Below the pieces are notes generated by a model. The model was given only the letters and a program-made list of their open reading frames with translations, was not told the origin of the DNA and made no database searches. This document shows positions 1 through 21,714 of a stretch of 64,000 bases of DNA, in pieces; the first letter of the stretch is position 1, and every line of letters starts with the position of its first letter. The position numbers and the translations under genes were made by a program. Origin of the DNA: Candidatus Omnitrophota bacterium (GTDB lineage: Bacteria; Omnitrophota; Gorgyraeia; Gygaellales; Profunditerraquicolaceae); contig JAGVER010000005.1 in assembly GCA_020058085.1 (NCBI GenBank), positions 2,743-66,742 of the forward strand. Reading direction: 5' to 3'.

Positions 1-3000
1 GGCGGAACCTGGCAGGATATAGTTTCGAATTTAGATGTTGTTCCGGGGGCTAATACCTACCCCTGGACAGTTCCTGTTTCTACCAGCACAAATACAGTGG
101 TTAAGGTAAGTGATTCTTCCGCGCTTTCTAGCGTCTTTAAGCAGACCGGCGTATTTACTATTCGCGGTGGTTTTAGCTTTGTGCATCCAGTAAGTACAGA
201 CCGTTGGTTGGCCAATAGTTCTAAACTTATAGAATGGAATACATTGGGTAGTATTTCTTCCGTTTATATACAGTATTCCTTGCAAGGCGGGGCAGGAGGA
301 ATTTGGAATTTTGTTAATGACGGTTCACCTATTTCTAATGCTACAGAGCAGTATAGTTGGACAGTTCCTAACGCAATTTCGTCTCAGGCGTGCATAAAAA
401 TCACTGATATTAATGATCCTCAAGCTAGCAAGATTTCGGATATTTTTAATATCCATGGCGCTATAACTTTGACCCAGCCCAATGGACAGGAAAAATTAAA
501 AGCGGGCCAGTCTGATACCTCAAGCAAAATCAAATGGACAATGACTGGGCCTATTTCTAGCGTTGACTTAGCACTTTCTACTAATGGCCAGGCGGGAACC
601 TATACGACTTTTGCTGTCAATCAATCAGCTGCGCTTTTAGAGTATCCGTGGTCAGTGCCTACTACTACGCTTTCAAATAATTGTTTTATCCGTATCCGCG
701 ATTCAGGAGATAATTTAGTGGAGGATTTTTCGGATTTAGCCTTTAAGATTATGGAGAACTTCAATCTTACTTCACCTAATGGCACAGAGCAGTGGGTGGT
801 GAGTGATCCACACGATATCACTTGGAACTCTGTAGGCCTGGCAAGTTCTGTTAATCTTAAATATTCCATAGATGCGGCTCATACCACTTGGACTCCGATT
901 ATTTCACAGACCGTTAATGATGGAGTTCATCCTTGGACTATTCCACCCACAATTTCGTCTACTTGTCAGGTACGGGTTTCTGATTTTAATGACGACACAG
1001 ACTCCTATGATCTTTCTGACAGTGACTTCAAAATCCAGGGTAGGGTTACTTTAATTTCTCCTGTAGGCGGTGAAAAATGGGGTTGCGCTAGCCAGCAGTG
1101 GATACGCTGGGGTTGGGATGGAAACATTGCCAAGGTAGACATTCATTATTATAACGGTTCAACCTGGGTAGCTATTGATGAAGCTCAAGGGTATATCAAT
1201 ACTGGTGAGTACGAATGGACCATACCTACGATTTCTACCATTGCGGCAAAGGTGCGCGTAAGAGATAATGCTGATCCCATCAATGTTTACGATATTTCGG
1301 CTGTTCCTTTTAAGATAATGGGCAGGGTAGTGGTTCAGGTTCCTAATGGCGCAGAGGTCTGGTATGCAGGTAGTAATGCTGTCATTACTTGGACAAAATA
1401 TGGGCCTGCTTCTTTTGATACTGTCCGGATTGATTATTCTCTTGATGACCCGGCGTTTAATAGCCCACAGTCTATCACTACTTCTACACCCAATGATGGC
1501 AGCTTTGACTGGTTAAATATGCCTCAAGAGGCAGTTTCAGGTAAGGTCAGAATTCGTATTGCCAAACCCGATGATATTGCCGATGTTTCGGATATCTCCG
1601 ACGGCGATTTCCGCGTGCGCGTGCAGTTCACTTTAAATTCGCCTAATGGCGGACAGAAATGGAGCGTGGCAGGAGAACAAACAATTACCTGGGCACAGAT
1701 TGGAAATACACAAGGGGTAAAGTTTATTTATTATAGACAGGGTAATCCCGCGATTAATCAAACATTTACTCTTCCTTCGGTTTATACAACCGGGACTTGG
1801 AACCATACCTGGACAATACCTGATTTTATTCAGAATGATTTAATAATGCGCGTAGAAGACCCACTGGACAACGGAGCTTTTGATATTTCTGACGCTACTT
1901 TTAAGATTATGGCGGGATTTGTGGTAACTCGTCCGGATGCTTCTTCGGCAAATGAGGTAGATTATAAATGGTATATAGAAGACCCTGAAATTATCCGTTG
2001 GACTTACACCGGAACAGTTTCAGATGTTGGTATTTATTACTCTACTGTTGGCGGTATAGATGGCAGCTGGGTAGCTTTAACCTCTGTCCCTGCCAGTAAT
2101 TTACAATGGACCTGGCCATCTGTGCCTAACCAGATTACTACGCAATTAAAAGTTAAAGTGGGTTCAGCTACTGATGCCGATGCTTATGGTCTTTCTTTCG
2201 GAATGTCCAGGATCGGATCCAAATTTAATTTAACCGCACCTTTAGGGGCTGAAGAATTAATTGTGCAAGATCCTTTTACGATTATCTGGGCTAATACCGG
2301 CACAGTAAGCAAGGTAGACCTGCATTATTCTACGGATGATTTTGTTACACCCAGGGAAATAATTACGAATCTAAACAATGGAGCAAACGGTGGTTTTTAT
2401 AACTGGACCGTTCCTGATGTATTTAGTCATCCGGGCGATCCGCAGACCGTAAAAGTGCGGGTAAAAAGATACACAGATGATGATTCCTTTTTCTTTGATA
2501 TTTCTGGCAATTTCAGGATTAAAGGTAGTCTCTGGGTTAAATCTCCGATTTTAGATGATGAATGGGATATTGGCCAGCCCTATCAGATTAAGTGGGGTTG
2601 GAAGGGAACAATGCCGCAGGTAAAGATTGCCTACTCTACAAATGGTCTATCCGGCCCGTTCAATCCAATTCTGGAGAGTTACGGAATCCCTAATGATGGT
2701 AAAGTGGCAAATGGCGCCGGCTCCGGCGGCCCCGGTTCAGAATATACCTATACTTGGACAATTCCGGATGAAGCCACAGCCAATGCCGTAATTAGAATTC
2801 AAGATGAGCGTATCACAGAATCAGATATAGTTGATGATAGTGAAATTTTTCATATCATTGGTTACCTTGCCAATGTAAAAATAAAAGACCCGGCAAATGG
2901 CCAGGAGGTGAATAAATTAGCCGTAGCCAGTAATTATAATATCAATTGGGAGTGGGGTGGGTCAATGCCCGAGGTTAAAATAACCTATTCTATAAACGGG

Positions 3001-6000
3001 GATACCGGGCCGTTTAATCCCATTGTGGAGAATTATGGAGTTCCTAATGATGGTAAAGTGGCAAATGGCGCCGGCTCCGGCGGCCCCGGTTCAGAATATA
3101 CCTATACTTGGACAATTCCCGATACTATCTCGCCGAATTGTAAGGTAAGAGTAGCAGACCCTAGGGATGAAACTGTGTTTAGCGAATCTGCAATATTTAA
3201 AATTCAGGGCGCCTTTACTTTGATTACTCCGCTAGTGGTTGATAATGGGCAGGGTGTTTATGAATGCCGCTGGGTTACTAATGAAGTAAGAGAAGTAAAA
3301 TGGACTACTTTTGGAACAATCCCCAAGGTTGATTTGGTTTATGCTAAAGATTCTGATAGTGATGGTGATATCGATAATGCGGATTTTACGCAAGAAATTG
3401 CCATGGTAAATGGGACTAATATTAATAATCTTAATACATTTAATTGGACAATTCCCAATGAGCGCTTAGCCAATCCGCCTTATTATGTGGAAGCCAAGAT
3501 ACGTATTTATGACCATAATGATCATGATGTTTATGTTCAGGGCCCGGTTACCGCCGGTGGAGTGGATAACTTGAAGATTGATTACTATAAGATTACCTGG
3601 GATATTAGGGATCTGATTACTAACCGGCAGATCGAAGGCTTGACAGTAAACGATACCTCCGGCTGGGTAGCTACCGGGCTTGCTTCGCCTATCACTCGTT
3701 ATGTTCCTGCAGGTTTCTGGACAGCAGAATGGACAAATAAAGATTATGGGCCGATATCTGAATCTTATCTTGCAGGCTGGGATGAAGATGCTCAGATTTG
3801 GCGGGGTGACCGCACAATTTATCGCACTATGGAGACTTTGGTAGTGCATATCTGGCGGGCTTATTCAGAATTTTCTTATGATGTTCCGCCTACGGATAAA
3901 TTAAATATTACCAGCTGGTTGGAAAGAGATGGTTATTTGGTTTCCGGCGTTTTGATTACAGATGTAACTATCTATGATGGTTTTGATAAGATAAAGAGAA
4001 AGACTAACTTAGTAGACGAGGCCGCTAATAAATTCTATTATTATACTGATATCCCTCCCGGCGTAAAATTGTGGATAGGCGACCGCTTGGGGGAACTGCG
4101 CACTATGCAAAATGTAATCAATGATTGCGCGCCGTATAAAACCGGCGAGATGGCTATACCTGCTGACTTTGCCGGTTTCTTTATCCAGTCTTGGTCTCCC
4201 ACTTCCTATACTGCCTCAGGCACAAATCACAGTACTTTGCAATCAGGTAGAGTCTACGCAGTTGCCAGCTATATGGGTTTATCCACCGGCGCTACCTTTA
4301 CTACTCCCGTATCATTTACGGTTACGATACCCATAGCCATGGCTAATGTTGAAGCAGCGGTTACTGGAATGGTTGACACGGTTAACTCTGTTTTGGATAA
4401 GCCTATATCCGTAGTCAGTGCGGAGATACAGGCTCAGTTAGAGGCGCAAACCGGGATTATTGACCAAAAAATGACTGAGCAGACCCAGATAATTCAGGTT
4501 GCCACCAATAATATGCAGACGATCATTCAGGATGCGATGGTTAGTTTTGAGACTACGGTGCAGGATTCAATTACTCTCTTGAAATCAAGCGCGGCGACAG
4601 CAGAAGAGGCAGCCGGGCTTCTGGAGACCACTGCTAAAAAATACTCTTGGAATGCTATGGTCTCTCCTGATCCGGCACTTACCGGCGATACTGTTACGCT
4701 AACTGCCCAGGGTATGCCCGGGTTAGCTCCCGTGCTTAAAGTTTATAGCTGGGATAATAAGACTATTTTAGATAATATAAAATTGACTGAGGCCAGCGAG
4801 GGAGTCTATAATTATGAATTTAAGGTGGATGCCCGTTTTACCGCGGGAAAGGCGTATACTTATGTGGTTACTGAGCAGAGTACTGCCGGCATGGTCTCCG
4901 GCTCCGGAATGGTAGAAAGTATGAGTCTTACTACGATTGCTGGTTTAGCGGCAGCCGCGCCTGGAGCGGAAAGGGCTGCCAAGAAGGCATTAGATGCGAT
5001 TGCGGCAGTTGAGGCAGTATTAATCTCTAAGGAGCCGATGAATATTGCCCTTACCCTAAAGAACCTTAAAGATTCCGTAGACGCGCTTCCAGAGGTAATG
5101 ACAAAAGAAGGCCCTTCCGCTCGTCTGGCTCAAACAGTAAATGAGATATCAAACAGGATAAAGAAATTGGGCGGCGATGAGGGGTATGATTTTACTACTT
5201 TAGTAGGTGAAGCTATAAACGAGGCGCCGGCTATCAAAGAATTACGCAGCAAGGCGGATGCAATCAGGACATCTACCGATGTTTTGACAAATGTTTTTGA
5301 AGCCAAATTTGGCGGCGTAGATAAGCCTGTTGTTGTAACTTCACTGGAACCCGGAAGCGTCAAATTCCGGATTGTAGCGCTTAACCCTTCGAAGACCAAG
5401 ACGCAAAAAACAGAGATAAAATACTATTTGCCTGCTGAAGTAAAACCAAAAGATATTTCAGATACAGCGGGCTTAGATTTGGAATATGATTCCGAAAAGT
5501 CTATTTACTACGTATATAAACCTGATCTAGAACTTTCTCCGGGTGAGATGCGCGTATTTGAGGTAGAAGTAGAAGATATTTGGTTCTTAGAGCAGAATAA
5601 ACTTTTAGAACTAAAGAATCGCACTGATATAGTCCTTGGTAAGCTTGAGACAACGCCTTATTATACAAAAGCTAAAGAGATAGCCGATACTATTTATCCG
5701 CGCTTAGATGAGATAGCTCTTTCTCAAAAAGATGATTCAATCAATCGCGAACAACATATAGGTATCTATCGGCAAAACCTTTTGACCTTAGGTCAGGTTA
5801 AAGAAGATATCGCCCGAATGGAAAAGATTCTTGTTACTGCCGGAGGGCCACCTGCGCCTGAAATGTTAGCCAAGACTAAAATAAAGGCGGATGAGCCTTC
5901 AAAGACAATGACCTGGATAGTTATTTGCACAGTTATTATTTTTACCGGGCTCTTAGCTGGAGTTCTTTTCTTTACTTGGCACCGCCAGGCACGCATCAGT

Positions 6001-6078
6001 AAAGAAGAACTTTTATCTGCTAAAAAGTCTGCCTTTCCAGAATCTGGTTCTAAAGAAGAACCTAAAGAAAATTCATAA
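1..6078 (+). CDS. Giant repeat-rich cell-surface protein, 5'-truncated by the window edge. It has >=12 tandem ~95-118 aa beta-rich (Ig-like) repeats, non-repeat beta and helical C-terminal regions, and a single C-terminal TM anchor.
   Basis: Frame 1 is open from nt 1, and GGTWQDIVSNLDVVPGANTYPWTVPVS already fits the repeat consensus, so the GTG at 97 is not the true start. Repeat consensus is roughly [FL]xLxSPNGGExW...ITW...G....V.I.YS....W..I....NDG.Y.WT[IV]P.....C.[IV]R[IV].D......D.SD..F.I.G. The TM helix MTWIVICTVIIFTGLLAGVLFFTW (nt 5908-5979) is followed by the basic tail HRQARISKEE. Confidence 0.85.
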   Translation, partial: GGTWQDIVSNLDVVPGANTYPWTVPVSTSTNTVVKVSDSSALSSVFKQTGVFTIRGGFSFVHPVSTDRWLANSSKLIEWNTLGSISSVYIQYSLQGGAGGIWNFVNDGSPISNATEQYSWTVPNAISSQACIKITDINDPQASKISDIFNIHGAITLTQPNGQEKLKAGQSDTSSKIKWTMTGPISSVDLALSTNGQAGTYTTFAVNQSAALLEYPWSVPTTTLSNNCFIRIRDSGDNLVEDFSDLAFKIMENFNLTSPNGTEQWVVSDPHDITWNSVGLASSVNLKYSIDAAHTTWTPIISQTVNDGVHPWTIPPTISSTCQVRVSDFNDDTDSYDLSDSDFKIQGRVTLISPVGGEKWGCASQQWIRWGWDGNIAKVDIHYYNGSTWVAIDEAQGYINTGEYEWTIPTISTIAAKVRVRDNADPINVYDISAVPFKIMGRVVVQVPNGAEVWYAGSNAVITWTKYGPASFDTVRIDYSLDDPAFNSPQSITTSTPNDGSFDWLNMPQEAVSGKVRIRIAKPDDIADVSDISDGDFRVRVQFTLNSPNGGQKWSVAGEQTITWAQIGNTQGVKFIYYRQGNPAINQTFTLPSVYTTGTWNHTWTIPDFIQNDLIMRVEDPLDNGAFDISDATFKIMAGFVVTRPDASSANEVDYKWYIEDPEIIRWTYTGTVSDVGIYYSTVGGIDGSWVALTSVPASNLQWTWPSVPNQITTQLKVKVGSATDADAYGLSFGMSRIGSKFNLTAPLGAEELIVQDPFTIIWANTGTVSKVDLHYSTDDFVTPREIITNLNNGANGGFYNWTVPDVFSHPGDPQTVKVRVKRYTDDDSFFFDISGNFRIKGSLWVKSPILDDEWDIGQPYQIKWGWKGTMPQVKIAYSTNGLSGPFNPILESYGIPNDGKVANGAGSGGPGSEYTYTWTIPDEATANAVIRIQDERITESDIVDDSEIFHIIGYLANVKIKDPANGQEVNKLAVASNYNINWEWGGSMPEVKITYSINGDTGPFNPIVENYGVPNDGKVANGAGSGGPGSEYTYTWTIPDTISPNCKVRVADPRDETVFSESAIFKIQGAFTLITPLVVDNGQGVYECRWVTNEVREVKWTTFGTIPKVDLVYAKDSDSDGDIDNADFTQEIAMVNGTNINNLNTFNWTIPNERLANPPYYVEAKIRIYDHNDHDVYVQGPVTAGGVDNLKIDYYKITWDIRDLITNRQIEGLTVNDTSGWVATGLASPITRYVPAGFWTAEWTNKDYGPISESYLAGWDEDAQIWRGDRTIYRTMETLVVHIWRAYSEFSYDVPPTDKLNITSWLERDGYLVSGVLITDVTIYDGFDKIKRKTNLVDEAANKFYYYTDIPPGVKLWIGDRLGELRTMQNVINDCAPYKTGEMAIPADFAGFFIQSWSPTSYTASGTNHSTLQSGRVYAVASYMGLSTGATFTTPVSFTVTIPIAMANVEAAVTGMVDTVNSVLDKPISVVSAEIQAQLEAQTGIIDQKMTEQTQIIQVATNNMQTIIQDAMVSFETTVQDSITLLKSSAATAEEAAGLLETTAKKYSWNAMVSPDPALTGDTVTLTAQGMPGLAPVLKVYSWDNKTILDNIKLTEASEGVYNYEFKVDARFTAGKAYTYVVTEQSTAGMVSGSGMVESMSLTTIAGLAAAAPGAERAAKKALDAIAAVEAVLISKEPMNIALTLKNLKDSVDALPEVMTKEGPSARLAQTVNEISNRIKKLGGDEGYDFTTLVGEAINEAPAIKELRSKADAIRTSTDVLTNVFEAKFGGVDKPVVVTSLEPGSVKFRIVALNPSKTKTQKTEIKYYLPAEVKPKDISDTAGLDLEYDSEKSIYYVYKPDLELSPGEMRVFEVEVEDIWFLEQNKLLELKNRTDIVLGKLETTPYYTKAKEIADTIYPRLDEIALSQKDDSINREQHIGIYRQNLLTLGQVKEDIARMEKILVTAGGPPAPEMLAKTKIKADEPSKTMTWIVICTVIIFTGLLAGVLFFTWHRQARISKEELLSAKKSAFPESGSKEEPKENS
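2689..3119 (+). repeat. Two perfect 77-nt direct repeats (2689-2765 and 3043-3119), 354 nt apart, inside adjacent protein repeats of the giant gene
   Basis: cctaatgatggtaaagtggcaaatggcgccggctccggcggccccggttcagaatatacctatacttggacaattcc occurs identically twice. It encodes PNDGKVANGAGSGGPGSEYTYTWTIP in both repeat units, while the flanking sequence has diverged. Confidence 0.95.
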
Positions 6079-6101
6079 AAAGGATAAGATTAAGATAAAA
6101 A

Positions 6102-6335
6102 ATGTTTCTTGATATTACTGTTTTAAGTCCAAAAGAAATAGTTTTTGAAGGAAAGGCTAAAAGTGTTATTTTACCGGGCGAAAATGGCGTATTCGAAGTG
6201 TTAGTGTTTCATAAATTTATCTTAAGCCGGCTTATTTCCGGAAAAATCACGGTAGATGAACAAAGCTTTCCCATACGCAGGGGGATTGTTAAGGCCCGTC
6301 AGAATAAAGTCACCATAATTATGGAAGAAGGATGA
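6102..6335 (+). CDS. atpC: F-type ATPase epsilon subunit, N-terminal beta-sandwich only (77 aa)
   Basis: VILPGENGVFEVLVFHKFILSRL...NKVTIIMEE matches the epsilon N-domain pattern (PG.eG.fgvL..H.p....L ... VtIla). The C-terminal two-helix hairpin is absent. ATGA overlap with the next gene. Confidence 0.7.
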   Translation: MFLDITVLSPKEIVFEGKAKSVILPGENGVFEVLVFHKFILSRLISGKITVDEQSFPIRRGIVKARQNKVTIIMEEG

Positions 6336-6550
6336 GCAGGAATATAGCACTTATTGTAATCTTTGGGTTCTGTGTATTGGGCCCTTGTGCTGTATTTGCC
6401 GCGGGTAGTTTCGCCAGTATTAACGCGCTGGGAAGGAATCCTTCAAGCGCGCCTAAAATATTTACCGCGATGATTATCGCGCTTGTTTTTGCTCAAGCCT
6501 TAGCAATTATAGCAATGTTAATAGTTTTTCAATTGTTCTCGCAATCATAG
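6332..6550 (+). CDS. ATPase c-subunit-like two-helix membrane hairpin lacking any acidic residue
   Basis: 72 aa with two hydrophobic helices joined by the polar loop GRNPSS (cf. ARQPE). It aligns nearly colinearly (one-residue offset) with 72-aa bacterial c subunits. ALVFAQALAIIAML corresponds to GVALVEALPIIGVV, with Gln55 (CAA, nt 6494-6496) at the ion-binding Glu position. The whole protein has no D or E, and the helix-1 GxGxGxG motif is degenerate. Confidence 0.6.
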   Translation: MSRNIALIVIFGFCVLGPCAVFAAGSFASINALGRNPSSAPKIFTAMIIALVFAQALAIIAMLIVFQLFSQS

Positions 6551-6601
6551 GCAGATAGAGTATAATTATCGCAAAGAGAGCTTAATTAGGAAAGGTAAAA
6601 T

Positions 6602-7318
6602 ATGTTTATCGTCCCTTTAATAATATTCCAGATATTTATTTTTGTTATTTTGGTTTTTGCTTTACGTAAAATAATGATGAAAAATGTGGTTTCGGCTACA
6701 AGGCACATTAATGAAATGGGCCAGGATTATGATAAAAAAGAAGAGGAGATAAGCAGGCGGTTTGAAGAACTAAAGCAGGAATCAGAGGAAACGGTTAGAA
6801 AAGCGCAACAAGAAGCGCAAGAGTTAAAGGCAGGGATTATTAAAGAAGCTGAAAGCGAAAGAGATAAAATGTTAAAACAGAGCAGGTCTCAAAGCGATGA
6901 GATAATTAAGCAGGCAGATAAGTCAAGGCAGCTTTTGCTCTCTGAAATAGACGAAAGAATAGCCAAAGAAGCGGTTAACAAAGCCTGTGAATTAATCCAG
7001 GAGACTTTGCCGGAACAGCTTAAGCAGAATGTGCATAGGTATTGGGTAAAAGAACTTATTAACGCTGGATTTAGCGAATTAGAGCGTTTACGCATTCCCA
7101 AAGATATCGACGAGGTAAAGATTATTTCAGCCTTTAATCTGGATGAAGAAGAGCGCAAAAATCTGTTTGATAAATTAAAAAACACGCTGGGTTCCGGGGT
7201 TAAATTTAAAGAAGAGATTGAACCAAAGGTAGTCGCAGGGATTATCATTACTATAGGCAGTCTTGTCCTAGACGGAAGTTTAAGGAATAAGATTAAGGAG
7301 AATATTAGGAATGCCTGA
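6602..7318 (+). CDS. ATPase peripheral-stalk b subunit fused to a delta/OSCP-like C-terminal domain
   Basis: N-terminal TM helix (MFIVPLIIFQIFIFVILVFAL), then a long charged coiled coil typical of subunit b. The C-terminus KVVAGIIITIGSLVLDGSLRNKIKENI matches the delta-subunit C-terminal signature (v.gG..i.iGd.viDgSvr..L..L). No separate atpH gene is present. Confidence 0.65.
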   Translation: MFIVPLIIFQIFIFVILVFALRKIMMKNVVSATRHINEMGQDYDKKEEEISRRFEELKQESEETVRKAQQEAQELKAGIIKEAESERDKMLKQSRSQSDEIIKQADKSRQLLLSEIDERIAKEAVNKACELIQETLPEQLKQNVHRYWVKELINAGFSELERLRIPKDIDEVKIISAFNLDEEERKNLFDKLKNTLGSGVKFKEEIEPKVVAGIIITIGSLVLDGSLRNKIKENIRNA

Positions 7319-8804
7319 TTCGGTATTAAAGGAAACAAGTATTAGAAGTGCGACCCGATTTGAAGTTAGAGAGATTGGACAAGTTCAGTCGGTGCGTAAA
7401 TTTATTCTTATTGTCAAGGGCCTGCCATCTTGTATTAATGGCCAGATTGTGGAGCTCGCAAATGGCACATTAGGATTGGTGATGGGTTTTACCGAAGATA
7501 AAGTCCAGATTTTAGTTTTAGGCGATGCTAGTTCTATCCGCGCGGGAGATGAGGTTTATAATAAAGGAAGGTCTTTGAATTTAGCTGTAGCAGACGCATT
7601 TTTAGGGCGGATAATCAACAGCCTTTGCCAGCCACAGGATGGCTTAGGCCCTATAGTGGTAAGCGAATTATATCCTGTATTTAAAGTGGCGCCGGGAGTT
7701 ATGGACCGCGCGCCTGTAAAAGATACCCTTGAAACAGGAACACTGATTCTGGACGCGATTATTCCTATAGCCAAGGGGCAGCGTCAGCTTCTTATAGGAG
7801 ATAGGCTTACCGGTAAGACAACGGTCGCGATTGACGCTATATTAAATCAAAAAGGCAAGGATGTTATTTGTATTTATTGCTGTATCGGGAAACCGTACTC
7901 CAGCTTCTTAAAGATTTTGGATATTCTAAATGAAAAAGATGCCTTACAATATACAATAATAGTCAGCGGTGTAGCATCTGTATCTACGGGAGAGCAATAT
8001 CTGGCCCCTTATACCGCCTGTATGCTGGGCGAATATTTTATGAATAAAGGCAAAGATGTTTTAGTTGTATTTGATGATTTGACTAAGCACGCGTGGATAT
8101 ATAGGCAGATATCTCTTCTTCTTGAGCGCGCGCCCGGAAGAGAGGCATACCCCGGAGATATATTTTATATTCATTCCCAATTAATGGAGCGCGCAGGTTT
8201 TCTTAAGCAGGAACTAGGTAGCGGATCAATGACATTTTTCCCCATTGTAGAAATACTTCAGGGCGATGTTACCGGTTATGTTTCCACAAACTTAATCTCT
8301 ATGACTGACGGGCAGCTGTATTTCTCTACCACACTTTTTAATAAAGGGTTTAAGCCGGCAATTGATTTTGGCCTTTCAGTTTCCCGTATCGGAAATAAGG
8401 CGCAATGGCCGGCGATGAAAGATTTAAGCAAATCTTTACGCCTGGATTACCTCCAGTATAAAGAACTTTTACAAATGACGCAATTACGGACTAGCGGGTT
8501 ATCCAAAGAAGCAGAGTTACGCTTAAAAAGAGGAGAAGCAATAAATCAACTTATTATTCAGGATAAAAATATCCCTGTTTCCTTGGAGGAGCAGATAATT
8601 TATCTGGTTGCTTTAAGCCGCGGCGTGCTTGATAATTTGCCGGTAAGTAAAATTAAACAATTTAAACAAGAGATCCTCAAATTCTTAGATAAGCGTTATC
8701 CGGGATTTTCTTTAAGCCTTCGTAACAGTAAGGCATTGACAGATGAAACCAAGATACAGATAGAGGATGTTTTGAGGGAGTATTTTAAGGAAGCGATAAA
8801 GTAA
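7311..8804 (+). CDS. atpA: F-type ATPase alpha subunit
   Basis: 497 aa. P-loop GDRLTGKTTVAID, LLLERAPGREAYPGDIFYIHSQLMERA, GLSVSRIG. Confidence 0.9.
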   Translation: MPDSVLKETSIRSATRFEVREIGQVQSVRKFILIVKGLPSCINGQIVELANGTLGLVMGFTEDKVQILVLGDASSIRAGDEVYNKGRSLNLAVADAFLGRIINSLCQPQDGLGPIVVSELYPVFKVAPGVMDRAPVKDTLETGTLILDAIIPIAKGQRQLLIGDRLTGKTTVAIDAILNQKGKDVICIYCCIGKPYSSFLKILDILNEKDALQYTIIVSGVASVSTGEQYLAPYTACMLGEYFMNKGKDVLVVFDDLTKHAWIYRQISLLLERAPGREAYPGDIFYIHSQLMERAGFLKQELGSGSMTFFPIVEILQGDVTGYVSTNLISMTDGQLYFSTTLFNKGFKPAIDFGLSVSRIGNKAQWPAMKDLSKSLRLDYLQYKELLQMTQLRTSGLSKEAELRLKRGEAINQLIIQDKNIPVSLEEQIIYLVALSRGVLDNLPVSKIKQFKQEILKFLDKRYPGFSLSLRNSKALTDETKIQIEDVLREYFKEAIK

Positions 8805-8807
8805 CCA

Positions 8808-9653: not shown

Positions 9654-9656
9654 TAT

Positions 9657-11057: not shown

Positions 11058-11059
11058 AG

Positions 11060-11527: not shown

Positions 11528-11530
11528 AAT

Positions 11531-13684: not shown

Positions 13685-13688
13685 CAAT

Positions 13689-14903
13689 ATGGGCACGTAT
13701 AAATATCGCGCAAAAAAAGGTTTTAATGAAGTTGTGGAAGGGTTAATTGACGCGCAGTCTGAAAAAGAAGCGATTGAAAAGTTAAGCTCTATGGAGTTGT
13801 TGCCCTTACACTTGGAAGAAGCCCGTGCCAGTAAATCTAAATCCATTTCTTTAGTCAAATTTCGCGGTAAAATTAAATCACGCGAAATTACTATTTTCAG
13901 CCGTCAATTAGCCAGCCTTTTGAAATCCGGCGTAGCTATTTTAAACGCCCTTAATATTATCAATGATCAGTCTGATGATTCTAACCTGAAAAATATACTT
14001 TATAATATTAGCAATGCAATAAAAGATGGCGCTACATTTTCTTCGGTGCTTGCGCAATATCCCCGGGTTTTTTCTCCTCTTTATGTTGCCATGATCCGCA
14101 CGGGAGAAGGCAGCGGGTCGCTTCCGGATGTGCTTTTAAGGATATCTGACTATCGCATCAAGCAAGAAGAGATGCTTTCGCGTTTTCGTATGGCCCTTGT
14201 TTACCCGATACTCATGGCAGTTGTGGGCCTGGGCACTATAATTTTTATGCTCACATTTGTAATGCCAAGATTAATGAAGATATTTTTGAGCATGGGGCAG
14301 GATTTACCTTTACCTACCCGTATTTTAATTGCGATAAGTGGTTTTCTTTGCCATAGCTGGTTTTGGGTAGTCTTAATTTTGGCAATCATAATTTTAATTC
14401 TTCGTAGAGAACTAAGGACAAAGTCCGGAAGGCTATCTTTGAGCCTGTTTAAATTACACCTTCCTTTGTTCGGAAAGCTTATCCTTAAAGCTGAACTTGC
14501 CCGTTTTTGCCGTACCCTGGAATTACTCATAAAAGATGGCATCACTATATTAAAGGCGATTGAAATAGCTGTTCCGGTAATTGACAACGAAATAATAAAG
14601 AACCATTTATTGCAGAGTTATCAACAACTACAGCGCGGCGGTTCTTTTGGTAGGAGTTTAAGAAATGTAAAATTATTTCCTGTTTTCATGAGTAACCTTA
14701 TAGGAGTAGGCGAAGAATCAGGCAGGCTTGATGAGGCCTTGGCGGAAGTGGCAGGTAATTACGAGCGGGATACTGACGAAGCAATTAAGGTAATGAACAG
14801 TCTCTTAGAGCCGGTGATGATTTTAGTAATGGGCTTAATCGTAGGTTTTATCGTGGTTGCAATGATTCTGCCCATATTTGAAATCAACATGATGGCTAAA
14901 TGA
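13689..14903 (+). CDS. GspF/PilC-family inner-membrane platform protein
   Basis: 404 aa with a duplicated T2SSF domain architecture, three TM segments, and a position directly after the GspE-like ATPase. Confidence 0.9.
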   Translation: MGTYKYRAKKGFNEVVEGLIDAQSEKEAIEKLSSMELLPLHLEEARASKSKSISLVKFRGKIKSREITIFSRQLASLLKSGVAILNALNIINDQSDDSNLKNILYNISNAIKDGATFSSVLAQYPRVFSPLYVAMIRTGEGSGSLPDVLLRISDYRIKQEEMLSRFRMALVYPILMAVVGLGTIIFMLTFVMPRLMKIFLSMGQDLPLPTRILIAISGFLCHSWFWVVLILAIIILILRRELRTKSGRLSLSLFKLHLPLFGKLILKAELARFCRTLELLIKDGITILKAIEIAVPVIDNEIIKNHLLQSYQQLQRGGSFGRSLRNVKLFPVFMSNLIGVGEESGRLDEALAEVAGNYERDTDEAIKVMNSLLEPVMILVMGLIVGFIVVAMILPIFEINMMAK

Positions 14904-15757
14904 TAAAGAAAGTAAAGATTTTACTTATTTTCCCGCTGCTATTTTTATCTTTATCTATAGCTAAGGCGGAAGAGTGGCAGGAGTTAAAGAGTGAACATTT
15001 TATCGCTTATTTTACCCGGGATGAAAAATTCGTCAAAGAAGTATTGGATAAAGCAGAGGTTTATTATCGTAGCATCGCTTTAGATTTAGGGTATTCTAGA
15101 TACAAAGAATTCTGGACTTGGGATAAAAGAGTAAAAATTTATATTTATCCGGACCATGCCTCCTATTTAAAGGCAACGGGTCAACCTGACTGGTCTCAGG
15201 GGGTAGCGGATTACAGGGCTAAACAGATAATTAGTTTTATCTGGAGCAGGGGATTTCTTGAATCGCTTCTTCCTCACGAAATGGCCCATTTGATTTTTAG
15301 GGATTTTGTGGGTTTTGAAAGCGATATACCCCTCTGGTTAGATGAAGGCGTGGCGCAATGGGCAGAAGATGTAAAAAGAGGGACAATGAAGAGGATGGTC
15401 AAGGATGCTTATAATCAGAATGGATTATTGAGTATGAATGATATGATGAAATTAGAGATTAGGAATTTAAAGGATAAAAACCTGGTTTTTATCCGGCCAA
15501 CACGCACAAAAGAAGGCAACGACGGAGTTGTAATTTTAAATAGCACTAATTTAGTTAATCTTTATTATTTAGAGGCCGCTTCACTAGTAGATTTTCTTAT
15601 AGCAAAATATGGCTCTGATAGTTTTGCTAATTTGTGTCGTCAGCTGCGCGACGGCAAGCAGATAGAAGAGGCCTTAACTTTTACTTATCCTAGTTCTATC
15701 CGTAGTATCGGTGACTTGGATAATCAGTGGAGAGATTATATAGCGAGGCAGTATTGA
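14900..15757 (+). CDS. Secreted zinc metalloprotease-like protein (peptidase MA-like, HExxH)
   Basis: Signal peptide MIKKVKILLIFPLLFLSLSIAKA. HEMAH at LLPHEMAHLIF and a downstream LWLDEGVAQWAE (gluzincin-type third ligand). ATGA overlap with the GspF-like gene. Confidence 0.6.
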   Translation: MIKKVKILLIFPLLFLSLSIAKAEEWQELKSEHFIAYFTRDEKFVKEVLDKAEVYYRSIALDLGYSRYKEFWTWDKRVKIYIYPDHASYLKATGQPDWSQGVADYRAKQIISFIWSRGFLESLLPHEMAHLIFRDFVGFESDIPLWLDEGVAQWAEDVKRGTMKRMVKDAYNQNGLLSMNDMMKLEIRNLKDKNLVFIRPTRTKEGNDGVVILNSTNLVNLYYLEAASLVDFLIAKYGSDSFANLCRQLRDGKQIEEALTFTYPSSIRSIGDLDNQWRDYIARQY

Positions 15758-15770
15758 CCAGGAGGGATTA

Positions 15771-16184
15771 ATGACTGGAATTAAAAAAACAGATGGTTTT
15801 ACTTTAATTGAGCTTATGCTTGTGGTTGTAATTATCGGTGCATTAGTGGCTATGGTTATGCCCAGGCTTACCGGAAGAGGCGAGCAGGCGCGCGTTGGCG
15901 CGGCCATGGCAGATATCCGCGCTAACATTGCCACTGCTTTAAAACTTTACGAATTAGATAATGGTAGTTTCCCCAGGACAGAAGAAGGATTGAATGCTTT
16001 ATTGAATAAACTTGCTTCTGCGTCAAACTGGAACGGCCCATATCTGGAAAAAAGCCCGGTAGACCCCTGGGGTAGGGAATATAAATATAAATGTCCGGGC
16101 GAACACAGGCCGGCGGATTACGATTTGTATTCATTAGGTAAAGACGGAGTGGAAAGCCAGGATGATGCCAAAAATTGGGAATAA
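15771..16184 (+). CDS. gspG: Type II secretion major pseudopilin GspG
   Basis: Prepilin leader MTGIKKTDG|FTLIELMLVVVIIG. C-terminus NGPYLEK.PVDPWGREYKYKCPGEHRPADYDLYSLGKDG is the classic GspG signature. Confidence 0.9.
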   Translation: MTGIKKTDGFTLIELMLVVVIIGALVAMVMPRLTGRGEQARVGAAMADIRANIATALKLYELDNGSFPRTEEGLNALLNKLASASNWNGPYLEKSPVDPWGREYKYKCPGEHRPADYDLYSLGKDGVESQDDAKNWE

Positions 16185-16557
16185 GCGGGCATTTACCCTT
16201 CTGGAGGTAATGGTTACTACCGCGGTATTATCATTAGGGACTGTTTTAATACATGAATCATTTTTTATTACTTTGGATTCATATGATTATTGTTCTAATT
16301 ATTTTAATGTTGCTCCATGGATGGATGAAAAAATCTGGCAGGTGCGGGATAATATAATCCGTCTTGGTTCATCCAGCCAGATAGAAACAAGCGGCACATT
16401 TACAATCAAAAATAAAGATTTTTCCTGGAATTTATCGCATAGTTTAGTAGAAGGCGCACAAGATTTGCATAAACTGGATCTGGTTGTTTTCTGGAAAGAA
16501 GGTCAGAGAAAGGTAAAATTATCAAGGACTGCTTATGCTAAGTATGCGCAAAGTTAG
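16162..16557 (+). CDS. Minor pseudopilin (prepilin-type N-terminal domain)
   Basis: N-terminus ...KRAFTLLEVMVTTAVLSLG has the conserved Glu5. The -1 residue is Ala rather than Gly. Confidence 0.6.
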   Translation: MMPKIGNKRAFTLLEVMVTTAVLSLGTVLIHESFFITLDSYDYCSNYFNVAPWMDEKIWQVRDNIIRLGSSSQIETSGTFTIKNKDFSWNLSHSLVEGAQDLHKLDLVVFWKEGQRKVKLSRTAYAKYAQS

Positions 16558-17119
16558 CCCGGGAATTACCCTTATTGAGTTACTCATTGTTACCGTATTG
16601 CTATCTGTAGTTTCAATGGCAGTATACGCAACTTTTAACAATGGCATAAAAATCTGGCAGAAACTGAATACACCGGTAGAGGGAGAAGATTTGGGTATTT
16701 TTTTTGATAAATTCACCCGGGACCTGGCGAATGGTTTCAAATTTTCAACTATTCCATTTTCGGGGTCAGAAGACAGGTTCCAATTCGCCACTCTCGTTAA
16801 CAGCCCAAGATTAGGCGGGAAGACAGTGGGCGAGGTAGTTTATTATTATGACCGCGGCAGCGTAACCTTAAATAGGCAGGAACTGGATTTCTCCCTGGTT
16901 TATAAAGGAGAAGAATCCGTAAGTAATCAGAAATTAAGCAATGTAAGATCCCTAAAATTTCAGTACTATTTTTATGATAAAGAAAAAAAAGAATATTCTT
17001 GGCAGGACGAATGGTTGAAAGAGACTCTACCTGTGGCTGTAAAGGTGGAATTTGAGATTAACTATGGTAAGGAAAATAACAAGTTCACGAAGACAGCCAA
17101 TATTCCCGTTGGCAGCTAA
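16535..17119 (+). CDS. Minor pseudopilin, GspJ/PulJ-like
   Basis: N-terminus ...SPG|ITLIELLIVTVLLSVVS. Size and beta-rich C-terminal part fit GspJ-like proteins. Confidence 0.6.
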   Translation: MLSMRKVSPGITLIELLIVTVLLSVVSMAVYATFNNGIKIWQKLNTPVEGEDLGIFFDKFTRDLANGFKFSTIPFSGSEDRFQFATLVNSPRLGGKTVGEVVYYYDRGSVTLNRQELDFSLVYKGEESVSNQKLSNVRSLKFQYYFYDKEKKEYSWQDEWLKETLPVAVKVEFEINYGKENNKFTKTANIPVGS

Positions 17120-18113
17120 AAAGGGAAGCATATTAATAATTGTGTTGTGGTCGCTTTGTTTATTAACTACTTTTGCTGTAATATTGGGTTATGGAGTTAG
17201 GCAGAAGCTTTCTTTGGCCAGCCGGATAGATGAGAGAGATAAGTTGCATTTTATCGTCGGGATTGGTGCAGAAAGGGCGATCCTTGAATTGAAGAATGAA
17301 CCGGAAAAGACTTATGACGTTTTTAAGGATAACTGGAGCAGTAATACCAACGCGTTTAAAGATATAGATATTGGCGACGCCAGGATTAATATCTGCTATA
17401 ATTATATCAACGAGCCTCAGGGGTTAGTTGAGGTTAGGTACGGGCTCATTGATGAGGAAAGAAAAATAAACATAAATAAGGCTGAGGTAAAAGTATTAGA
17501 GCGGTTTTTTCGCATTGCTCTTAATTACAATGAGAATCAGGCGCAGGAGTTGGCCGCATCTATTGTTGACTGGCGCGATAGTGATAGTGAACTATCCGTC
17601 CCTTTAGGCAGCGCGGAAGATTCATATTACAGGGATCTTGAGCAACCCTATGAAGCAAAGGACGCGGTATTTGAAATTTTAGAAGAACTCCTTTTGGTTA
17701 GAGGCATTAGAGAGGATAGCTTCCAGAAAATAAAAGATTATCTTACTGTCTACGGAAGTGGTAGAATTAATATCAATACCGTTTCTAAGCCGGTTCTTTT
17801 GGCCTTAGGATTAAGTGATGATATTACAGGTAAGATCTTAAATTTTCGTTCGGGAGAGGACGGGATTTTAGGTACCGACGATGACAATGTTTTCGATCAG
17901 ACCGCGAATATACTGCCGAAGTTAAGCCAGTTTTATGACTTAAGCGAATCTGAAGTAGCGGCGCTTAGCGCGGTTGTCAGCGAATATTTAACTACAAAAT
18001 CAAATATTTTTATGGCCAAAAGCACAGCCAGATTAAACGGCAAGAATTATACAGAAGAATTGACTTGCGTGTTTGACCGCAAGGGCAAGATTCTTTATTG
18101 GCAGGAGCAGTAA
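17052..18113 (+). CDS. GspK-like minor pseudopilin
   Basis: Hydrophobic N-terminus KKGSILIIVLWSLCLL without Glu5 (a GspK hallmark), plus HhH-like segments (RININTVSKPVLLALGL). The start is uncertain: ATG 17052/17064 or in-frame TTG 17109. Confidence 0.6.
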   Translation: MRLTMVRKITSSRRQPIFPLAAKKGSILIIVLWSLCLLTTFAVILGYGVRQKLSLASRIDERDKLHFIVGIGAERAILELKNEPEKTYDVFKDNWSSNTNAFKDIDIGDARINICYNYINEPQGLVEVRYGLIDEERKININKAEVKVLERFFRIALNYNENQAQELAASIVDWRDSDSELSVPLGSAEDSYYRDLEQPYEAKDAVFEILEELLLVRGIREDSFQKIKDYLTVYGSGRININTVSKPVLLALGLSDDITGKILNFRSGEDGILGTDDDNVFDQTANILPKLSQFYDLSESEVAALSAVVSEYLTTKSNIFMAKSTARLNGKNYTEELTCVFDRKGKILYWQEQ

Positions 18114-19601
18114 ATGTCTGGGGTCAACTTAAAGAGAATTAATCTTAGATCCTTCGCGAGAAACAGAAATGAACTTGTAGGCATAGATTTTAGCGGCAAT
18201 AATTTAAAGTTTGCCCATGCAAGAATCTCATCTAATAAAAGAGAGGTGATCAATCTTTCTAGCCGCGATATAAGCGGCCTAGCCGATGCCGATATCTCCA
18301 AGGTTATAAGGTCCGGCTATGGCGAATTAGGCGCTAAAAACCCACAAATTATAAATATCATACCTCCGCATTTGGTGATAACTAAGAATATTGAAATTCC
18401 TTCGGTTAATGAAAAAGAGATAAGAGAGATTATAAACCTGCAGGCAGGCAGGCATACTCCATATTCGCGCGAAGAGATAATTGTGGATTATATTGATATA
18501 GGCACTTACAAGAATAGTTATACCAAAATACTTTTGGTGATTGTTGCGCGTAGTGTCGTAAAAAGGCAGTTTGAGATATTGGATAAAGCCGGCCTTCAGT
18601 TAGAGCGGGTGTTGCTTGCTCCGGAAGGCTTGGCCTGGTCTGTTTCCAAGGTATTAAAGATTGAAACCCAGGATTCTCCGGCTAACGTCGTACATATTGA
18701 TGAAGGTTTTACCGATTTTAGTATTGTTTTTAAGAATAACGTAGTCTTTATCAGGTCTATCCCCATAGGAACAAGGCATTTATTAAATGAGAAGGGAAAG
18801 TATGAAAGCAGATTTGTTGAAGAGCTTAAAAATTCTCTCGAGGCTTATCAAAATGAGGATATAGAAAAGAGCCCCAGTGTTATTATTTTAACAGGAGCTG
18901 TTGAAGAATTAAAAGATTTGGAAGCCGTCTTAAATAGCAGTTTGCATTTGCCTATTAAAGTAATGCCTTATTTTAAGAATCTTACAATTTCAGACCAGGC
19001 ATTAAAGGCAGCATCCGCAACAAGGAATTTATCTTTTCTGAATGTAATTGCCCCTCTTCTTACAACGCAAGATATGAAGATAAACCTTGTGCCCGAGGAA
19101 GTAAAACTAAGAAAATCGCTTGAAGAAAAAGGAAGAGATCTGATTAAAGCAGGGATTTTTGTTTTATTGTCTTTTGTTTTGTTATTTTCTATAATGGCAA
19201 GTAAAATTTATTTTAAAAGCGCTTATTTAAAGGTTTTAAATAATAAATACCAGCCATTGAGCCAGGATGCGCAAAAATTAGAAGAAGATTTTACCAAAGT
19301 GAGCGCGATAAAAGGTTATCTGGCTAAGCGCGGATATCTTTTAGAGATATTAACTGAATTATATAATGTTACTCCGGAGGGCTTAGAGTTAAACGATATC
19401 CGTTTTGATGAGCAGGGTAAGTTTACCGTTAGAGGCGTTGCTGAGTCCATGTCTACGGTATTTTCTTTTGTTGGCAGTATGGAAAAATCAAAATATTTTG
19501 AAGATGTTAAGACCAAATACACCTCAAAACGAAAAGACGGGATGAAAGATGTAACTGATTTTGAGATAGCTGCTTCGCTTAAAAAGTATTTTTCTTCATG
19601 A
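18114..19601 (+). CDS. PilM-PilN fusion (GspL-like) assembly protein
   Basis: N-terminal actin-like PilM region (VGIDFSGNNLKFAHARIS...), then a single TM (IFVLLSFVLLFSIMASKIYF), then a PilN-like periplasmic domain. Confidence 0.7.
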   Translation: MSGVNLKRINLRSFARNRNELVGIDFSGNNLKFAHARISSNKREVINLSSRDISGLADADISKVIRSGYGELGAKNPQIINIIPPHLVITKNIEIPSVNEKEIREIINLQAGRHTPYSREEIIVDYIDIGTYKNSYTKILLVIVARSVVKRQFEILDKAGLQLERVLLAPEGLAWSVSKVLKIETQDSPANVVHIDEGFTDFSIVFKNNVVFIRSIPIGTRHLLNEKGKYESRFVEELKNSLEAYQNEDIEKSPSVIILTGAVEELKDLEAVLNSSLHLPIKVMPYFKNLTISDQALKAASATRNLSFLNVIAPLLTTQDMKINLVPEEVKLRKSLEEKGRDLIKAGIFVLLSFVLLFSIMASKIYFKSAYLKVLNNKYQPLSQDAQKLEEDFTKVSAIKGYLAKRGYLLEILTELYNVTPEGLELNDIRFDEQGKFTVRGVAESMSTVFSFVGSMEKSKYFEDVKTKYTSKRKDGMKDVTDFEIAASLKKYFSS

Positions 19602-20161
19602 AAATAATAAATCTGCAGGTTTTGTCTATGGTTCTTTCTCGTTTATCTAAAAGAGAAAAGGCCATTCTTTATGGCACGGTTCTTGTCGTATCTTTGACCG
19701 CGATAGATCGCTTAATAATAAATCCTATTTTCTCTAAGATGGAGGCGTTAAATAAGCAGATACAGGAAAAAGATGCCGGGATTAAAAAGGATTTGCGCAT
19801 ACTGGCGCAGAAAGAGAGGATCCTGGCTGAAAAGGTAAAATATGCCTCTTTTTTAAGTTCTTCAGCATCCGAAGAAGAAGAGATGACCTCAATTTTGAAA
19901 GAAGTTGAAGCCTTGGCGGGAAAAAGTTCGGTGTATCTTGTCGATATGAAGCCCGTGGGTTTGAAAAAGTCCGGTTCATCGGAAAAATACCTGATTAATG
20001 TTAATTGCGAGGCGCAAATGGAACAACTTACTGAATTTATTTATAATATAGAAAGTTCAAACAAGTTACTCTCCGTTGAGAAGTGCCAGATAAACCCGAA
20101 ATCAAAAGATTCAAGCGTGGTAAAGTGCAGTATGTCAATAGCCAAAATAGTGGTAAAATAA
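19598..20161 (+). CDS. PilO/GspM-like bitopic assembly protein
   Basis: N-terminal TM (AILYGTVLVVSLTAIDRLII), a coiled coil, then a small alpha/beta C-terminal domain. ATGA overlap with the PilMN gene. Confidence 0.5.
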   Translation: MKIINLQVLSMVLSRLSKREKAILYGTVLVVSLTAIDRLIINPIFSKMEALNKQIQEKDAGIKKDLRILAQKERILAEKVKYASFLSSSASEEEEMTSILKEVEALAGKSSVYLVDMKPVGLKKSGSSEKYLINVNCEAQMEQLTEFIYNIESSNKLLSVEKCQINPKSKDSSVVKCSMSIAKIVVK

Positions 20162-20163
20162 AT

Positions 20164-20379
20164 ATGCCTGATGCGATTACACAAGTAGGTTTGGTAGCCG
20201 GAGAGATATGGCATTTTATTAATGATAAGGGCGGTGAGGCAACTTTATCCGCGCTCTTAAGTTCCATAAACCATAGCCAACAAGTTGTTTTTATGAGCCT
20301 TGGCTGGTTAGCGCGCGAGGGCCAGGTGTTCTTGGAAGAAAAAGATAGTGATTTCAAGGTGGTAGTTAAAAAACGGTAA
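20164..20379 (+). CDS. Small winged-helix protein (DUF2582-like)
   Basis: The ATG at 20164 lies 2 nt after the upstream stop. MPDAITQVGLVAGEIWHFINDKGGEATLSALL...LGWLAREGQV fits the small wHTH family. The ORF-track start at 20083 would overlap the PilO-like gene by 79 nt. Confidence 0.5.
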   Translation: MPDAITQVGLVAGEIWHFINDKGGEATLSALLSSINHSQQVVFMSLGWLAREGQVFLEEKDSDFKVVVKKR

Positions 20380-20427: not shown

Positions 20428-20432
20428 TTTAG

Positions 20433-21637: not shown

Positions 21638-21714
21638 AAATTATTATTGCATTAATCTGACTTTAGCTATACAATAAAAAGCCTGTGAAAGTTTTATGCT
21701 AAAAAGGAGAAGAG

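Follow-up and report, generated by a model that had tools for sequence, protein, structure and literature searches.

In a stretch of DNA of 64,000 nucleotides (nt) from a Candidatus Omnitrophota bacterium (GenBank assembly GCA_020058085.1, contig JAGVER010000005.1, positions 2,743 to 66,742 of the forward strand), here called the window, the first 20 kb are occupied by a gene cluster that is probably a typical Omnitrophota locus of the "symbiotic F-type ATPase / type IVa pilus (T4aP)" kind, composed of three working parts and having an ATPase that acts as a motor and not as a synthase. The three parts are a very large surface protein with immunoglobulin (Ig)-like repeats, an F1-like ATPase, and a pseudopilus machine of the type II secretion system (T2SS) type with receptors for cyclic di-GMP (c-di-GMP). 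The linkage of their genes is conserved in related loci, the ATPase has lost ion-coupling features, and the c-di-GMP receptor motifs are intact. A preliminary description, made from the sequence alone, had proposed that the three modules form one functional unit; the linkage is indeed conserved across loci, and a physical or energetic coupling of the modules is something that we infer.

The main evidence is the conservation of the gene order, a check that had been proposed in the preliminary description and that was strongly positive both from the ATPase side and from the large-protein side. When the beta subunit was used as the first bait and one genome per species was scanned, mostly canonical ATP synthases of about 48% identity were obtained, together with only two family members: L001, an Omnitrophota metagenome-assembled genome (MAG; 72%) in which the window order is preserved from b-delta through PilMN, and L002, a MAG labelled Planctomycetota (58%). 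Because the beta scan was swamped by canonical ATP synthases, the bait was switched to the divergent gamma subunit. The search for gamma homologs gave 714 proteins at E <= 1e-5; identity was no lower than 60% for any of the best 120, and the named proteins among these 120 were nearly all from Omnitrophota. A scan of metagenomes with the gamma alignment added 80 loci. Open reading frames (ORFs) of the loci were labelled by BLAST against the window proteins, and dereplication at 95% gamma identity left 79 clusters.

Loci were counted for the large protein when at least 1.5 kb was available upstream of epsilon, and for GspE when at least 3 kb was available downstream of beta. A homolog of the large protein was located immediately 5' of epsilon in 26 of the 27 dereplicated loci, and GspE followed beta, directly or past a small MshEN gene, in 39 of 40 (37 as counted by the script, plus two that had been flagged only for overlapping stop-to-stop ORFs). 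Among the 39 loci with the beta-GspE link, at least 33 have PilZ and 26 have the MshEN-only gene between beta and GspE. Farther downstream, GspF follows GspE (31/34 loci), GspG and Peptidase_MA are present in 23 and 18 of 26 loci, respectively, and the order of the minor pseudopilins is kept. Junctions are short also in these relatives, with a median gap of 11 nt from the large gene to epsilon (30 loci) and of 7.5 nt from beta to MshEN (36 loci), and the overlap of GspK with its upstream gene is kept (family median, -66 nt).

In the reverse test, three orthologs of the large protein (29-37% identity) were all found to precede epsilon-c-b/delta-alpha-gamma-beta-(MshEN)-GspE-GspF, and two further look-ups of gamma showed the identical layout. 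Because the synteny is conserved when approached from both directions, the three modules very likely constitute one functional unit. A chance adjacency of unrelated modules, such as may occur in a compact genome with abutting co-directional genes, is highly improbable and has largely been refuted already by the conserved synteny: dozens of dereplicated loci share the order and the short junctions, with gamma identity to the window going down to about 46% for the full-cluster form and about 34% for a minimal clade described below, and the same order is retrieved starting from the large protein. What favors chance adjacency is the tight packing of the window as a whole, and it is set out here together with the packing of the cluster itself.

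The cluster was examined as a co-directional run on the + strand from the large gene through a winged helix-turn-helix (wHTH) gene (positions 1-20379), with 17 junctions of 23, -4, 51, -8, 3, 3, 2, 3, 4, -4, 13, -23, -23, -68, 0, -4, and 2 nt. Gene calls were based on the ORF list and on Pfam scans of the proteins of the 64-kb window, and by these means every gene of the preliminary description and all of its 17 junctions, with their gaps and overlaps, were recovered. Its statement that no terminator is present before position 20379 also agrees with our scan, in which the + strand terminator-like sites of this region are all intragenic and none is in a gap. The window contains 16 terminator-like sites versus 15.5 +/- 4 expected from shuffled sequences; the counts from the promoter scan likewise equal the shuffle expectation, and transcription units are neither defined nor split by the two scans. 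The remaining part of the window, which carries unrelated housekeeping genes, is equally tight, with a median junction of 1 nt and 32 of 38 junctions at or below 51 nt. Examples are rpsO-pnp-ftsK-rodZ-miaB-like-pgsA-pgpA, the riboflavin (rib) genes with nusB, ligA...xerC...cca, and the dcw cluster. Since housekeeping genes of the same window are packed alike, packing alone shows little; the junction evidence discriminates less than was assumed in the preliminary description, and synteny is the real evidence. The longest run of junctions of at most 51 nt in the window is the run of 17 in this cluster, the runner-up being 9.

The ATPase module is composed of genes for epsilon (6102-6335; 77 amino acids (aa), N-terminal beta-sandwich only, PF02823), subunit c (6332-6550; 72 aa with two transmembrane (TM) helices, PF00137), a b-delta fusion stator with a TM helix, a b-like helix and the C-terminal part of delta/OSCP (6602-7318; PF00430 and PF00213), alpha (7311-8804), a divergent gamma (8808-9653; PF00231, 106 bits), and beta (9657-11057). 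Like canonical F1Fo enzymes, it has homologs of alpha, beta, gamma, epsilon, c, and b/delta, and the catalytic residues that were checked are intact. Unlike them, it has no subunit a that could be found in the window, Gln at the ion site of c, an epsilon without C-terminal helices, a b-delta fusion with a partial delta, a divergent gamma, and the non-canonical gene order epsilon-c-b/delta-alpha-gamma-beta.

By their scores, alpha and beta are ordinary atpA and atpD products. Alpha obtained 561.5 against the cutoff of 554 of NF009884 and 542 against 484.45 of TIGR00962, and beta obtained 559.7 against 462.85 of TIGR01039. Within the family, the Walker A motif (P-loop) of beta is kept in 55 of 55 proteins (the strict form GxGERxREG in 45), and the SxSR motif of alpha, which we take to hold the arginine finger, is kept in 57 of 57; judging from such motifs, beta is apparently catalytically competent. 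In a neighbor-joining tree, the 55 family betas formed one clade apart from 78 canonical betas, to which they are about 48% identical, whereas the canonical betas are 71% identical among themselves. The other subunits deviate more. Gamma (74.9) is below its NCBIfam cutoff of 194.45, and epsilon (45.8 against 67.25) matches only positions 2-79 of the 130 in the profile. All epsilon proteins of the family are 74-81 aa long, which corresponds to the beta-sandwich alone, without the C-terminal domain. The b-delta fusion covers the delta (OSCP) profile PF00213 only at positions 95-167 of 172, and its best NCBIfam match, alt_F1F0_F0_B with 58 bits, missed the cutoff of 224.7.

A hidden Markov model (HMM) of 14 canonical a subunits gave no match at E <= 1 in about 85 family loci and in the whole 64-kb window, while it gave 21 matches in canonical control loci. 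Because no gap within the ATPase module exceeds 471 nt across the loci, the module has no room for a subunit a gene, canonical a subunits being 230-297 aa long. Subunit c of the window has Gln where all aligned c subunits of solved structure have Glu, and among 38 distinct family c subunits the carboxylate column is occupied by E in 17, Q in 13, V, F, and I in 2 each, and L and A in 1 each. The residue switches between near-identical c sequences, and the cytoplasmic loop ALGRNPSSAPKIF is almost invariant. The strongest internal clues to the nature of this enzyme, all read from sequence, are thus the missing subunit a, the non-conserved c-ring carboxylate, the truncated epsilon, and the b-delta fusion with its partial OSCP match. 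Because subunit a is not found, the c carboxylate is not conserved, and epsilon has no inhibitory C-terminal domain, the enzyme would be an ATP-hydrolysing mechanical motor and not an ion-coupled synthase; in our reading, a hydrolysis-competent F1 would sit on a c-ring that serves as a structural rotor or anchor and not as an ion carrier.

The alternative that must be weighed against this motor is an F-type ATP synthase of the ordinary, energy-conserving kind whose subunit a gene lies at another place in the genome and that merely shares the operon, for example, for local ATP supply. Split atp operons occur in some bacteria, and the scores of alpha and beta above the atpA and atpD cutoffs, the intact catalytic motifs, and the Glu in 17 of 38 c subunits would all be expected of such an enzyme. 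We consider it unlikely, since subunit a was not found in about 85 loci, the c carboxylate varies among E, Q, and hydrophobic residues in close relatives within a subunit that is otherwise nearly invariant, the epsilon C-terminal domain is never present, b-delta matches the delta (OSCP) profile only C-terminally, gamma is under its family cutoff, and the family betas form a separate clade. A split into "respiratory" and "symbiotic" clades within the phylum, given in the main text of PMC10066038, points in the same direction.

Two known kinds of specialized ATPases were tried as assignments of the motor candidate and rejected. For the N-ATPase, alpha scored 508.1 against 750.5, beta 483.3 against 752, and b-delta 58 against 224.7 bits. 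The N-ATPase operon (Dibrova et al. 2010) has the order beta-epsilon-Q-R-a-c-b-alpha-gamma, including AtpQ, AtpR, and subunit a, and this type is further ruled out by the subunit a that was not found in the family loci and by the order epsilon-c-b/delta-alpha-gamma-beta. For the Mycoplasma ATPases, type 2 (gliding) was rejected with 400.6 against 600 for MMOB1660 and 427 against 850 for MMOB1670, and type 3 (F1-like X0) with 304.2 against 520 for MSC_0619 and 403.1 against 570 for MSC_0618. In a search of PDB with beta, canonical F1 gave 470 bits versus 335 bits for the G1 beta of M. mobile, and M. mobile G1 alpha was not among the 60 best PDB matches listed.

Beta ends 2 nt before a gene for a stand-alone MshEN protein of 155 aa (11060-11527; PF05157), a predicted c-di-GMP receptor that scores 61.6 against the cutoff of 38 of NF053729 and carries the motif RLGDILIEKGLITQEVLDDALREQ. 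The pseudopilus genes follow: an assembly ATPase of the GspE/PilB type whose N-terminal domain is MshEN and whose C-terminal domain is PilZ (11531-13684; T2SSE, 432 bits), a GspF/PilC-type inner-membrane platform protein (13689-14903; PF00482), an exported zinc metallopeptidase of the Peptidase_MA type with HExxH and an N-terminal hydrophobic segment (14900-15757; PF13485), the major pseudopilin GspG (15771-16184; T2SSG and N_methyl), two minor pseudopilins (16162-16557 and the GspJ-like 16535-17119; N_methyl and T2SSJ), a GspK-like minor pseudopilin (17052-18113; PF21687, T2SSK_1st), a PilM-PilN fusion that is a GspL-like assembly-platform protein with one TM helix (18114-19601; PF11104 and PF05137), and a PilO/GspM-like protein (19598-20161; PF10741 and PF04350).

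GspG scored 135.3 against the TIGR01710 cutoff of 88.85. For GspE the best model is that of T2SS GspE (589.4, cutoff 630.25), the PilB model giving 563.9 (cutoff 675.65), and for GspF the GspF model scores best at 372.7, slightly under its cutoff of 424. PilM, PilN, and PilO domains are present, PilB is under its cutoff, and neither PilT nor PilQ was found in the window. Because GspG passes its cutoff, GspE and GspF are best on T2SS models, and PilB scores lower, the label "T2SS-like pseudopilus", which the preliminary description had also used, fits better than T4aP. Among T2SS and MshE-type type IV pilus (T4P) ATPases (Wang et al. 2016, PMC5013675), the likeness lies in GspE, F, G, J, and K, the PilM/N/O-like platform, and MshEN on the ATPase. 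The difference lies in an absence from the window of secretin, GspC, and prepilin peptidase, in the extra C-terminal PilZ on GspE, in a separate MshEN-only protein with an intact motif, and in the F1-like ATPase in the same operon-like cluster. GspC was not found among the window proteins scanned, and the genes for secretin, GspC, and the peptidase could be located outside the 64 kb; the related loci end too soon past PilO for judging these three.

The PilZ domain of GspE scores 43.4 against a cutoff of 22.5 and has both motifs, RxxxR as RAYLR and NxSxxG as NLSAGG; the pair is kept in 34 of 44 GspE proteins of the family. A strict regular expression for MshEN was matched by 8 of 38 small MshEN proteins, which we judged to be a limit of the pattern and not a loss of the motif. 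With receptor motifs of both MshEN and PilZ intact, the control by c-di-GMP suggested in the preliminary description gains support at the level of sequence. In one related locus (L165, 18063-19610), three tandem PilZ-only genes of 161-168 aa are inserted between GspE and GspF.

The large surface protein is represented in the window by its C-terminal 2025 aa (1-6078, open at the left window edge), which are 100% identical to the corresponding part of a 2925-aa protein, P0121. Since the first residues of P0121 resemble sequence from the middle of a repeat, this protein too has probably been cut at the contig edge. Tandem Ig-like beta-sandwich repeats of the Kre9_KNH / Reelin-subrepeat type, which occur also in surface proteins of other phyla, are followed by unique domains, and the C-terminal end consists of one TM helix and a basic cytoplasmic tail of about 30 aa. 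Orthologs are 29-64% identical, the copy in L081 being 35% identical over all 2025 residues. Conservation is highest in approximately the last 425 aa, with mostly 55-65% identity versus 30-40% in the repeats. This C-terminal module (4801-6078) is composed of a beta-sandwich, a three-helix bundle, the TM helix (approximately nt 5902-5976), and a tail in which the motif AKKSAFP is found, and in L095, L109, L113, and L164 the last 280-330 aa form a gene of their own directly before epsilon.

An AlphaFold2 model of the C-terminal module has a predicted local distance difference test (pLDDT) score of 69.8 overall and of 78-93 over residues 190-350. With this fold, Foldseek against PDB gave nothing below E = 0.09, the sequence search of PDB gave no match, and no Pfam or NCBIfam family was assigned to the module. 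It has 912 representative homologs, some of which are stand-alone proteins of 260-300 aa and some of which are fused to GGDEF. The membrane-proximal beta-sandwich and helical-bundle domain at nt 5350-5880 (aa about 1784-1960) is also present in proteins of about 420-650 aa, with P0270, P0287, and P0295 listed, and in 3 of the 7 such proteins examined the C-terminal end is formed by a GGDEF diguanylate cyclase domain.

The examined orthologs, which are up to 3485 aa long, reach the contig end, stop within about 110 nt of it, or have no credible start. Contigs that break inside the large gene are those of L081, L082, and L163-L166 and the window's own contig, and the assemblies evidently break within the repeats of this gene. 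Because of these contig breaks, public annotations (2240-3485 aa, often unflagged as partial) understate the size of the protein and give false N-termini. In L136, the large gene has an apparent frameshift within a repeat.

From the parts described above we infer co-transcription, physical coupling, and a biological role in the following way. The cluster would be a single transcription unit. The Ig-repeat giant would be a fibre-like protein held in the inner membrane by its C-terminal TM helix and membrane-proximal module; the F1-like rotary ATPase of epsilon, c, b-delta, alpha, gamma, and beta would be a mechanical motor; and the T2SS-like machine of GspE, F, G, the two minor pseudopilins, K, PilMN, and PilO, accompanied by the exported Peptidase_MA, would be the third part. 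At the membrane, the ATPase might exert torque or force on the large-protein anchor, the GspE/F platform, or both of them. A rise in c-di-GMP would license assembly through the MshEN protein and the PilZ domain of GspE, and the pseudopilus would extend, deploy, or move the fibre, by which the cell would attach to host or prey cells or move over them. As a guess, processing of the fibre may be the task of Peptidase_MA.

A more specific form of this working, which we regard as a long shot, is that the a-less, ion-uncoupled c-ring would receive the TM helix of the giant as a rotor socket, so that F1, hydrolysing ATP, would twist the fibre of several thousand residues while the c-di-GMP-gated GspE/F pseudopilus would act as a deployment piston. 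The proposed arrangement would resemble that of V-ATPase c-rings, which house single-pass type I proteins such as Ac45/ATP6AP1. If true, it would be a rotary surface machine of a kind not described before, with which prey cells could be grabbed or drilled.

Several observations weigh against the three-part motor proposed here, besides the equally tight packing of the rest of the window, the ordinary atpA and atpD scores, and the Glu retained at the c-ring site of 17 family members, which have been given above. Subunit a may be encoded elsewhere in the genome, and ion coupling may accordingly persist in some lineages. The N-terminus of the large protein was not recovered from any ortholog, and its export is an assumption. 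No secretin (GspD), prepilin peptidase, or retraction ATPase was found among the scanned proteins of the 64-kb window. Four loci (L002, L083, L085, and L086) carry only c-b/delta-alpha-gamma-beta-GspE/PilZ amid varied neighbors, and this minimal clade is without the large protein or pseudopilins within the approximately 3-10 kb of flank available. Locus L088 has the ATPase alone, in the order epsilon-c-c-b/delta-alpha-gamma-beta, with no GspE or large protein. Because of the minimal clade and L088, the union of the three parts is not universal, and because the beta-GspE link persists in the minimal clade, it is the deepest conserved link.

These loci are the ground for another explanation, in which the F1-like ATPase and the c-di-GMP-binding GspE are the core pair, an older module of two ATPases, and the large protein and the pseudopilins are later additions in Omnitrophota, as cargo or fibre. 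The survival of the beta-GspE/PilZ link in the four minimal loci, with a beta 58% identical and with GspF, pseudopilins, and large protein absent from the flanks, speaks for this explanation. The flanks are only about 3-10 kb long, however, and the absent genes may lie elsewhere; in the main clade, moreover, the linkage of the large protein is as tight as that of GspE (26/27 versus 39/40). We consider the core-pair explanation rather unlikely; it is compatible with much of the main view.

Some details of the variant loci may be added. L088 (contig Ga0265292_1000019, about 7100-12300) is located after glycosyltransferase, methyltransferase, and polysaccharide-export genes and has two c genes, of which the aligned copy keeps Glu at the ion site. 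In L002, the "Planctomycetota" MAG, a PD-(D/E)XK nuclease gene (9607-9996) splits gamma from beta. In L085 and L086, a longer protein that is weakly similar to Peptidase_MA (28% identity; DUF1570 / Peptidase_M1) is encoded upstream of c.

The joining of an ATPase with a pilus machine had been regarded in the preliminary description as abnormal, and this view has to be given up, since the co-location has already been published as a phylum-wide trait of Omnitrophota. The main text of Seymour et al. 2023 (PMC10066038) reports "symbiotic" non-respiratory F-type ATPase clusters beside T4aP clusters in every Omnitrophota class, with the ATPase and T4aP genes no more than 10 kb apart in 57 of 66 contigs, and proposes that they function in attaching to host cells or in motility on them. 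Because of this report, the present locus is a member of a published kind: a non-respiratory F-type ATPase adjoins a T4P/T2SS-like cluster, the closest named relatives of the window are Omnitrophota, the beta stop is 2 nt before the MshEN gene that precedes GspE, and the betas form a separate clade. The locus differs from those loci as described in that T2SS models fit its pilus part better than those of T4aP. The same main text places alpha with Mycoplasma types 2/3, an affinity that was not reproduced by the HMM scores here; on these scores, the "type 2/3" label for the Omnitrophota ATPase looks doubtful.

Beyond the co-location and a phylogeny of alpha and beta, we found in that main text no mention of the upstream Ig-repeat protein, a missing subunit a, a variable c carboxylate, a short epsilon, or the MshEN/PilZ receptors. 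Secretion and pilus genes that flank giant genes are reported in the relevant passages of West-Roberts et al. 2023 and of a 2026 preprint, and the layout given in the former is different, with the secretion system upstream and pilZ downstream of the giant genes; a term search of these two sources gave no such ATPase cluster adjoining giant genes. In the literature searched, neither the subunit anatomy nor the large protein as a fixed third partner was found to be described, and relative to these papers the large-protein partner and the ion-uncoupled features of the ATPase are new.

Mycoplasma ATPases of type 2 (gliding of M. mobile) and type 3 (F1-like X0, MIB-MIP) are the subject of PMC3369863, PMC11864180, and PMC12994834, and according to the passages concerned, genetic linkage and a functional requirement have been shown for type 3. 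As in the window, these enzymes are F1-derived, have no ATP synthesis, and are tied to surface proteins of host interaction. The differences are that alpha and beta of the window fail both cutoffs and are much closer to canonical F1, that the window keeps a recognizable c and b-delta, and that its ATPase is linked to a pseudopilus machine with GspE/F, a machine absent from mycoplasmas. Their F1-like clusters are understood, partly from the abstract of PMC3369863, to be without c and b-delta. The function proposed for our cluster invites a further comparison. The type 2 motor pairs with very large surface "leg" proteins, and an F1 motor working with a giant surface protein, as envisaged here, would be a parallel to it.

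Omnitrophota are widespread, uncultured, and ultra-small bacteria that are thought to be predators or parasites, and the cluster, which unites two ATP-driven machines with a giant surface protein, bears on how they attach to or attack hosts. It is common in the phylum, as the 714 proteins at E <= 1e-5 from the gamma search alone indicate. If the motor reading is true, it would be a further case, besides Mycoplasma types 2/3, in which an F1Fo-type enzyme has become a mechanical motor, and since the c-ring and stator are kept, unlike in the Mycoplasma enzymes, it is a good system for asking what an ion-free c-ring does. The published co-location is made testable by the missing subunit a, the freely varying carboxylate site, and the truncated epsilon, and further by the conserved, sometimes separate anchor module with its tail motif and by the two kinds of c-di-GMP receptor.

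At the 3' end of the cluster, the small winged-helix protein (20164-20379; DUF2582, PF10771) has no homolog at this place in the related loci, and its position is unique to the window. The + strand encodes at 20934-21287 a small protein that has a hydrophobic segment at its N-terminus and matches no Pfam/NCBIfam family, and its homologs stand directly after PilO in L095, L107, and L137. Since they follow PilO in three related loci, this gene is probably a part of the conserved cluster, which therefore probably extends beyond 20379, at least to this gene.

Other features of the window are as follows. An element of about 50 nt is repeated at 20379-20430 and 22029-22078, with a partial copy near 21985-22028. 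It is made up of two hairpins, the first GC-rich (CACCCGGCC...GGCCGGTG) and the second small (TGCACTTACTGTGCA), and of AGGAGG, and it stands immediately 5' of the start codons of a 163-aa gene (20433) and of rpsO (22086); its 25-nt core has exactly 2 copies versus 0 expected. Neither the structured element near 20379 nor the non-coding stretch 21290-21715 matched an Rfam family. In the region 21290-21880, about 430 nt without a convincing ORF, containing the direct repeat GACCAAAGATTAAGGTGCTC twice, are followed by a 53-aa ORF (21716-21877) with a good Shine-Dalgarno sequence, and the best sigma-70-like match of the region (21891-21919; 11/12) is just 5' of rpsO.

The window is nearly all coded on the + strand, with about three plausible minus-strand genes (a LigT-like gene at 29635-30207, CinA at 30406-30873, and a gene at 46661-47158), and since the cumulative GC skew rises steadily, it probably lies within one replichore. 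A flavin mononucleotide (FMN) riboswitch at 30945-31153 (85 bits) is located upstream of ribBA (31300), and nusB and a PHP-domain gene are interspersed among the riboflavin genes. The sole tRNA gene in the 64 kb is tRNA-Pro(CGG) at 36008-36081, and the dcw cluster of cell-wall and division genes is found at about 48.8-63.4 kb.

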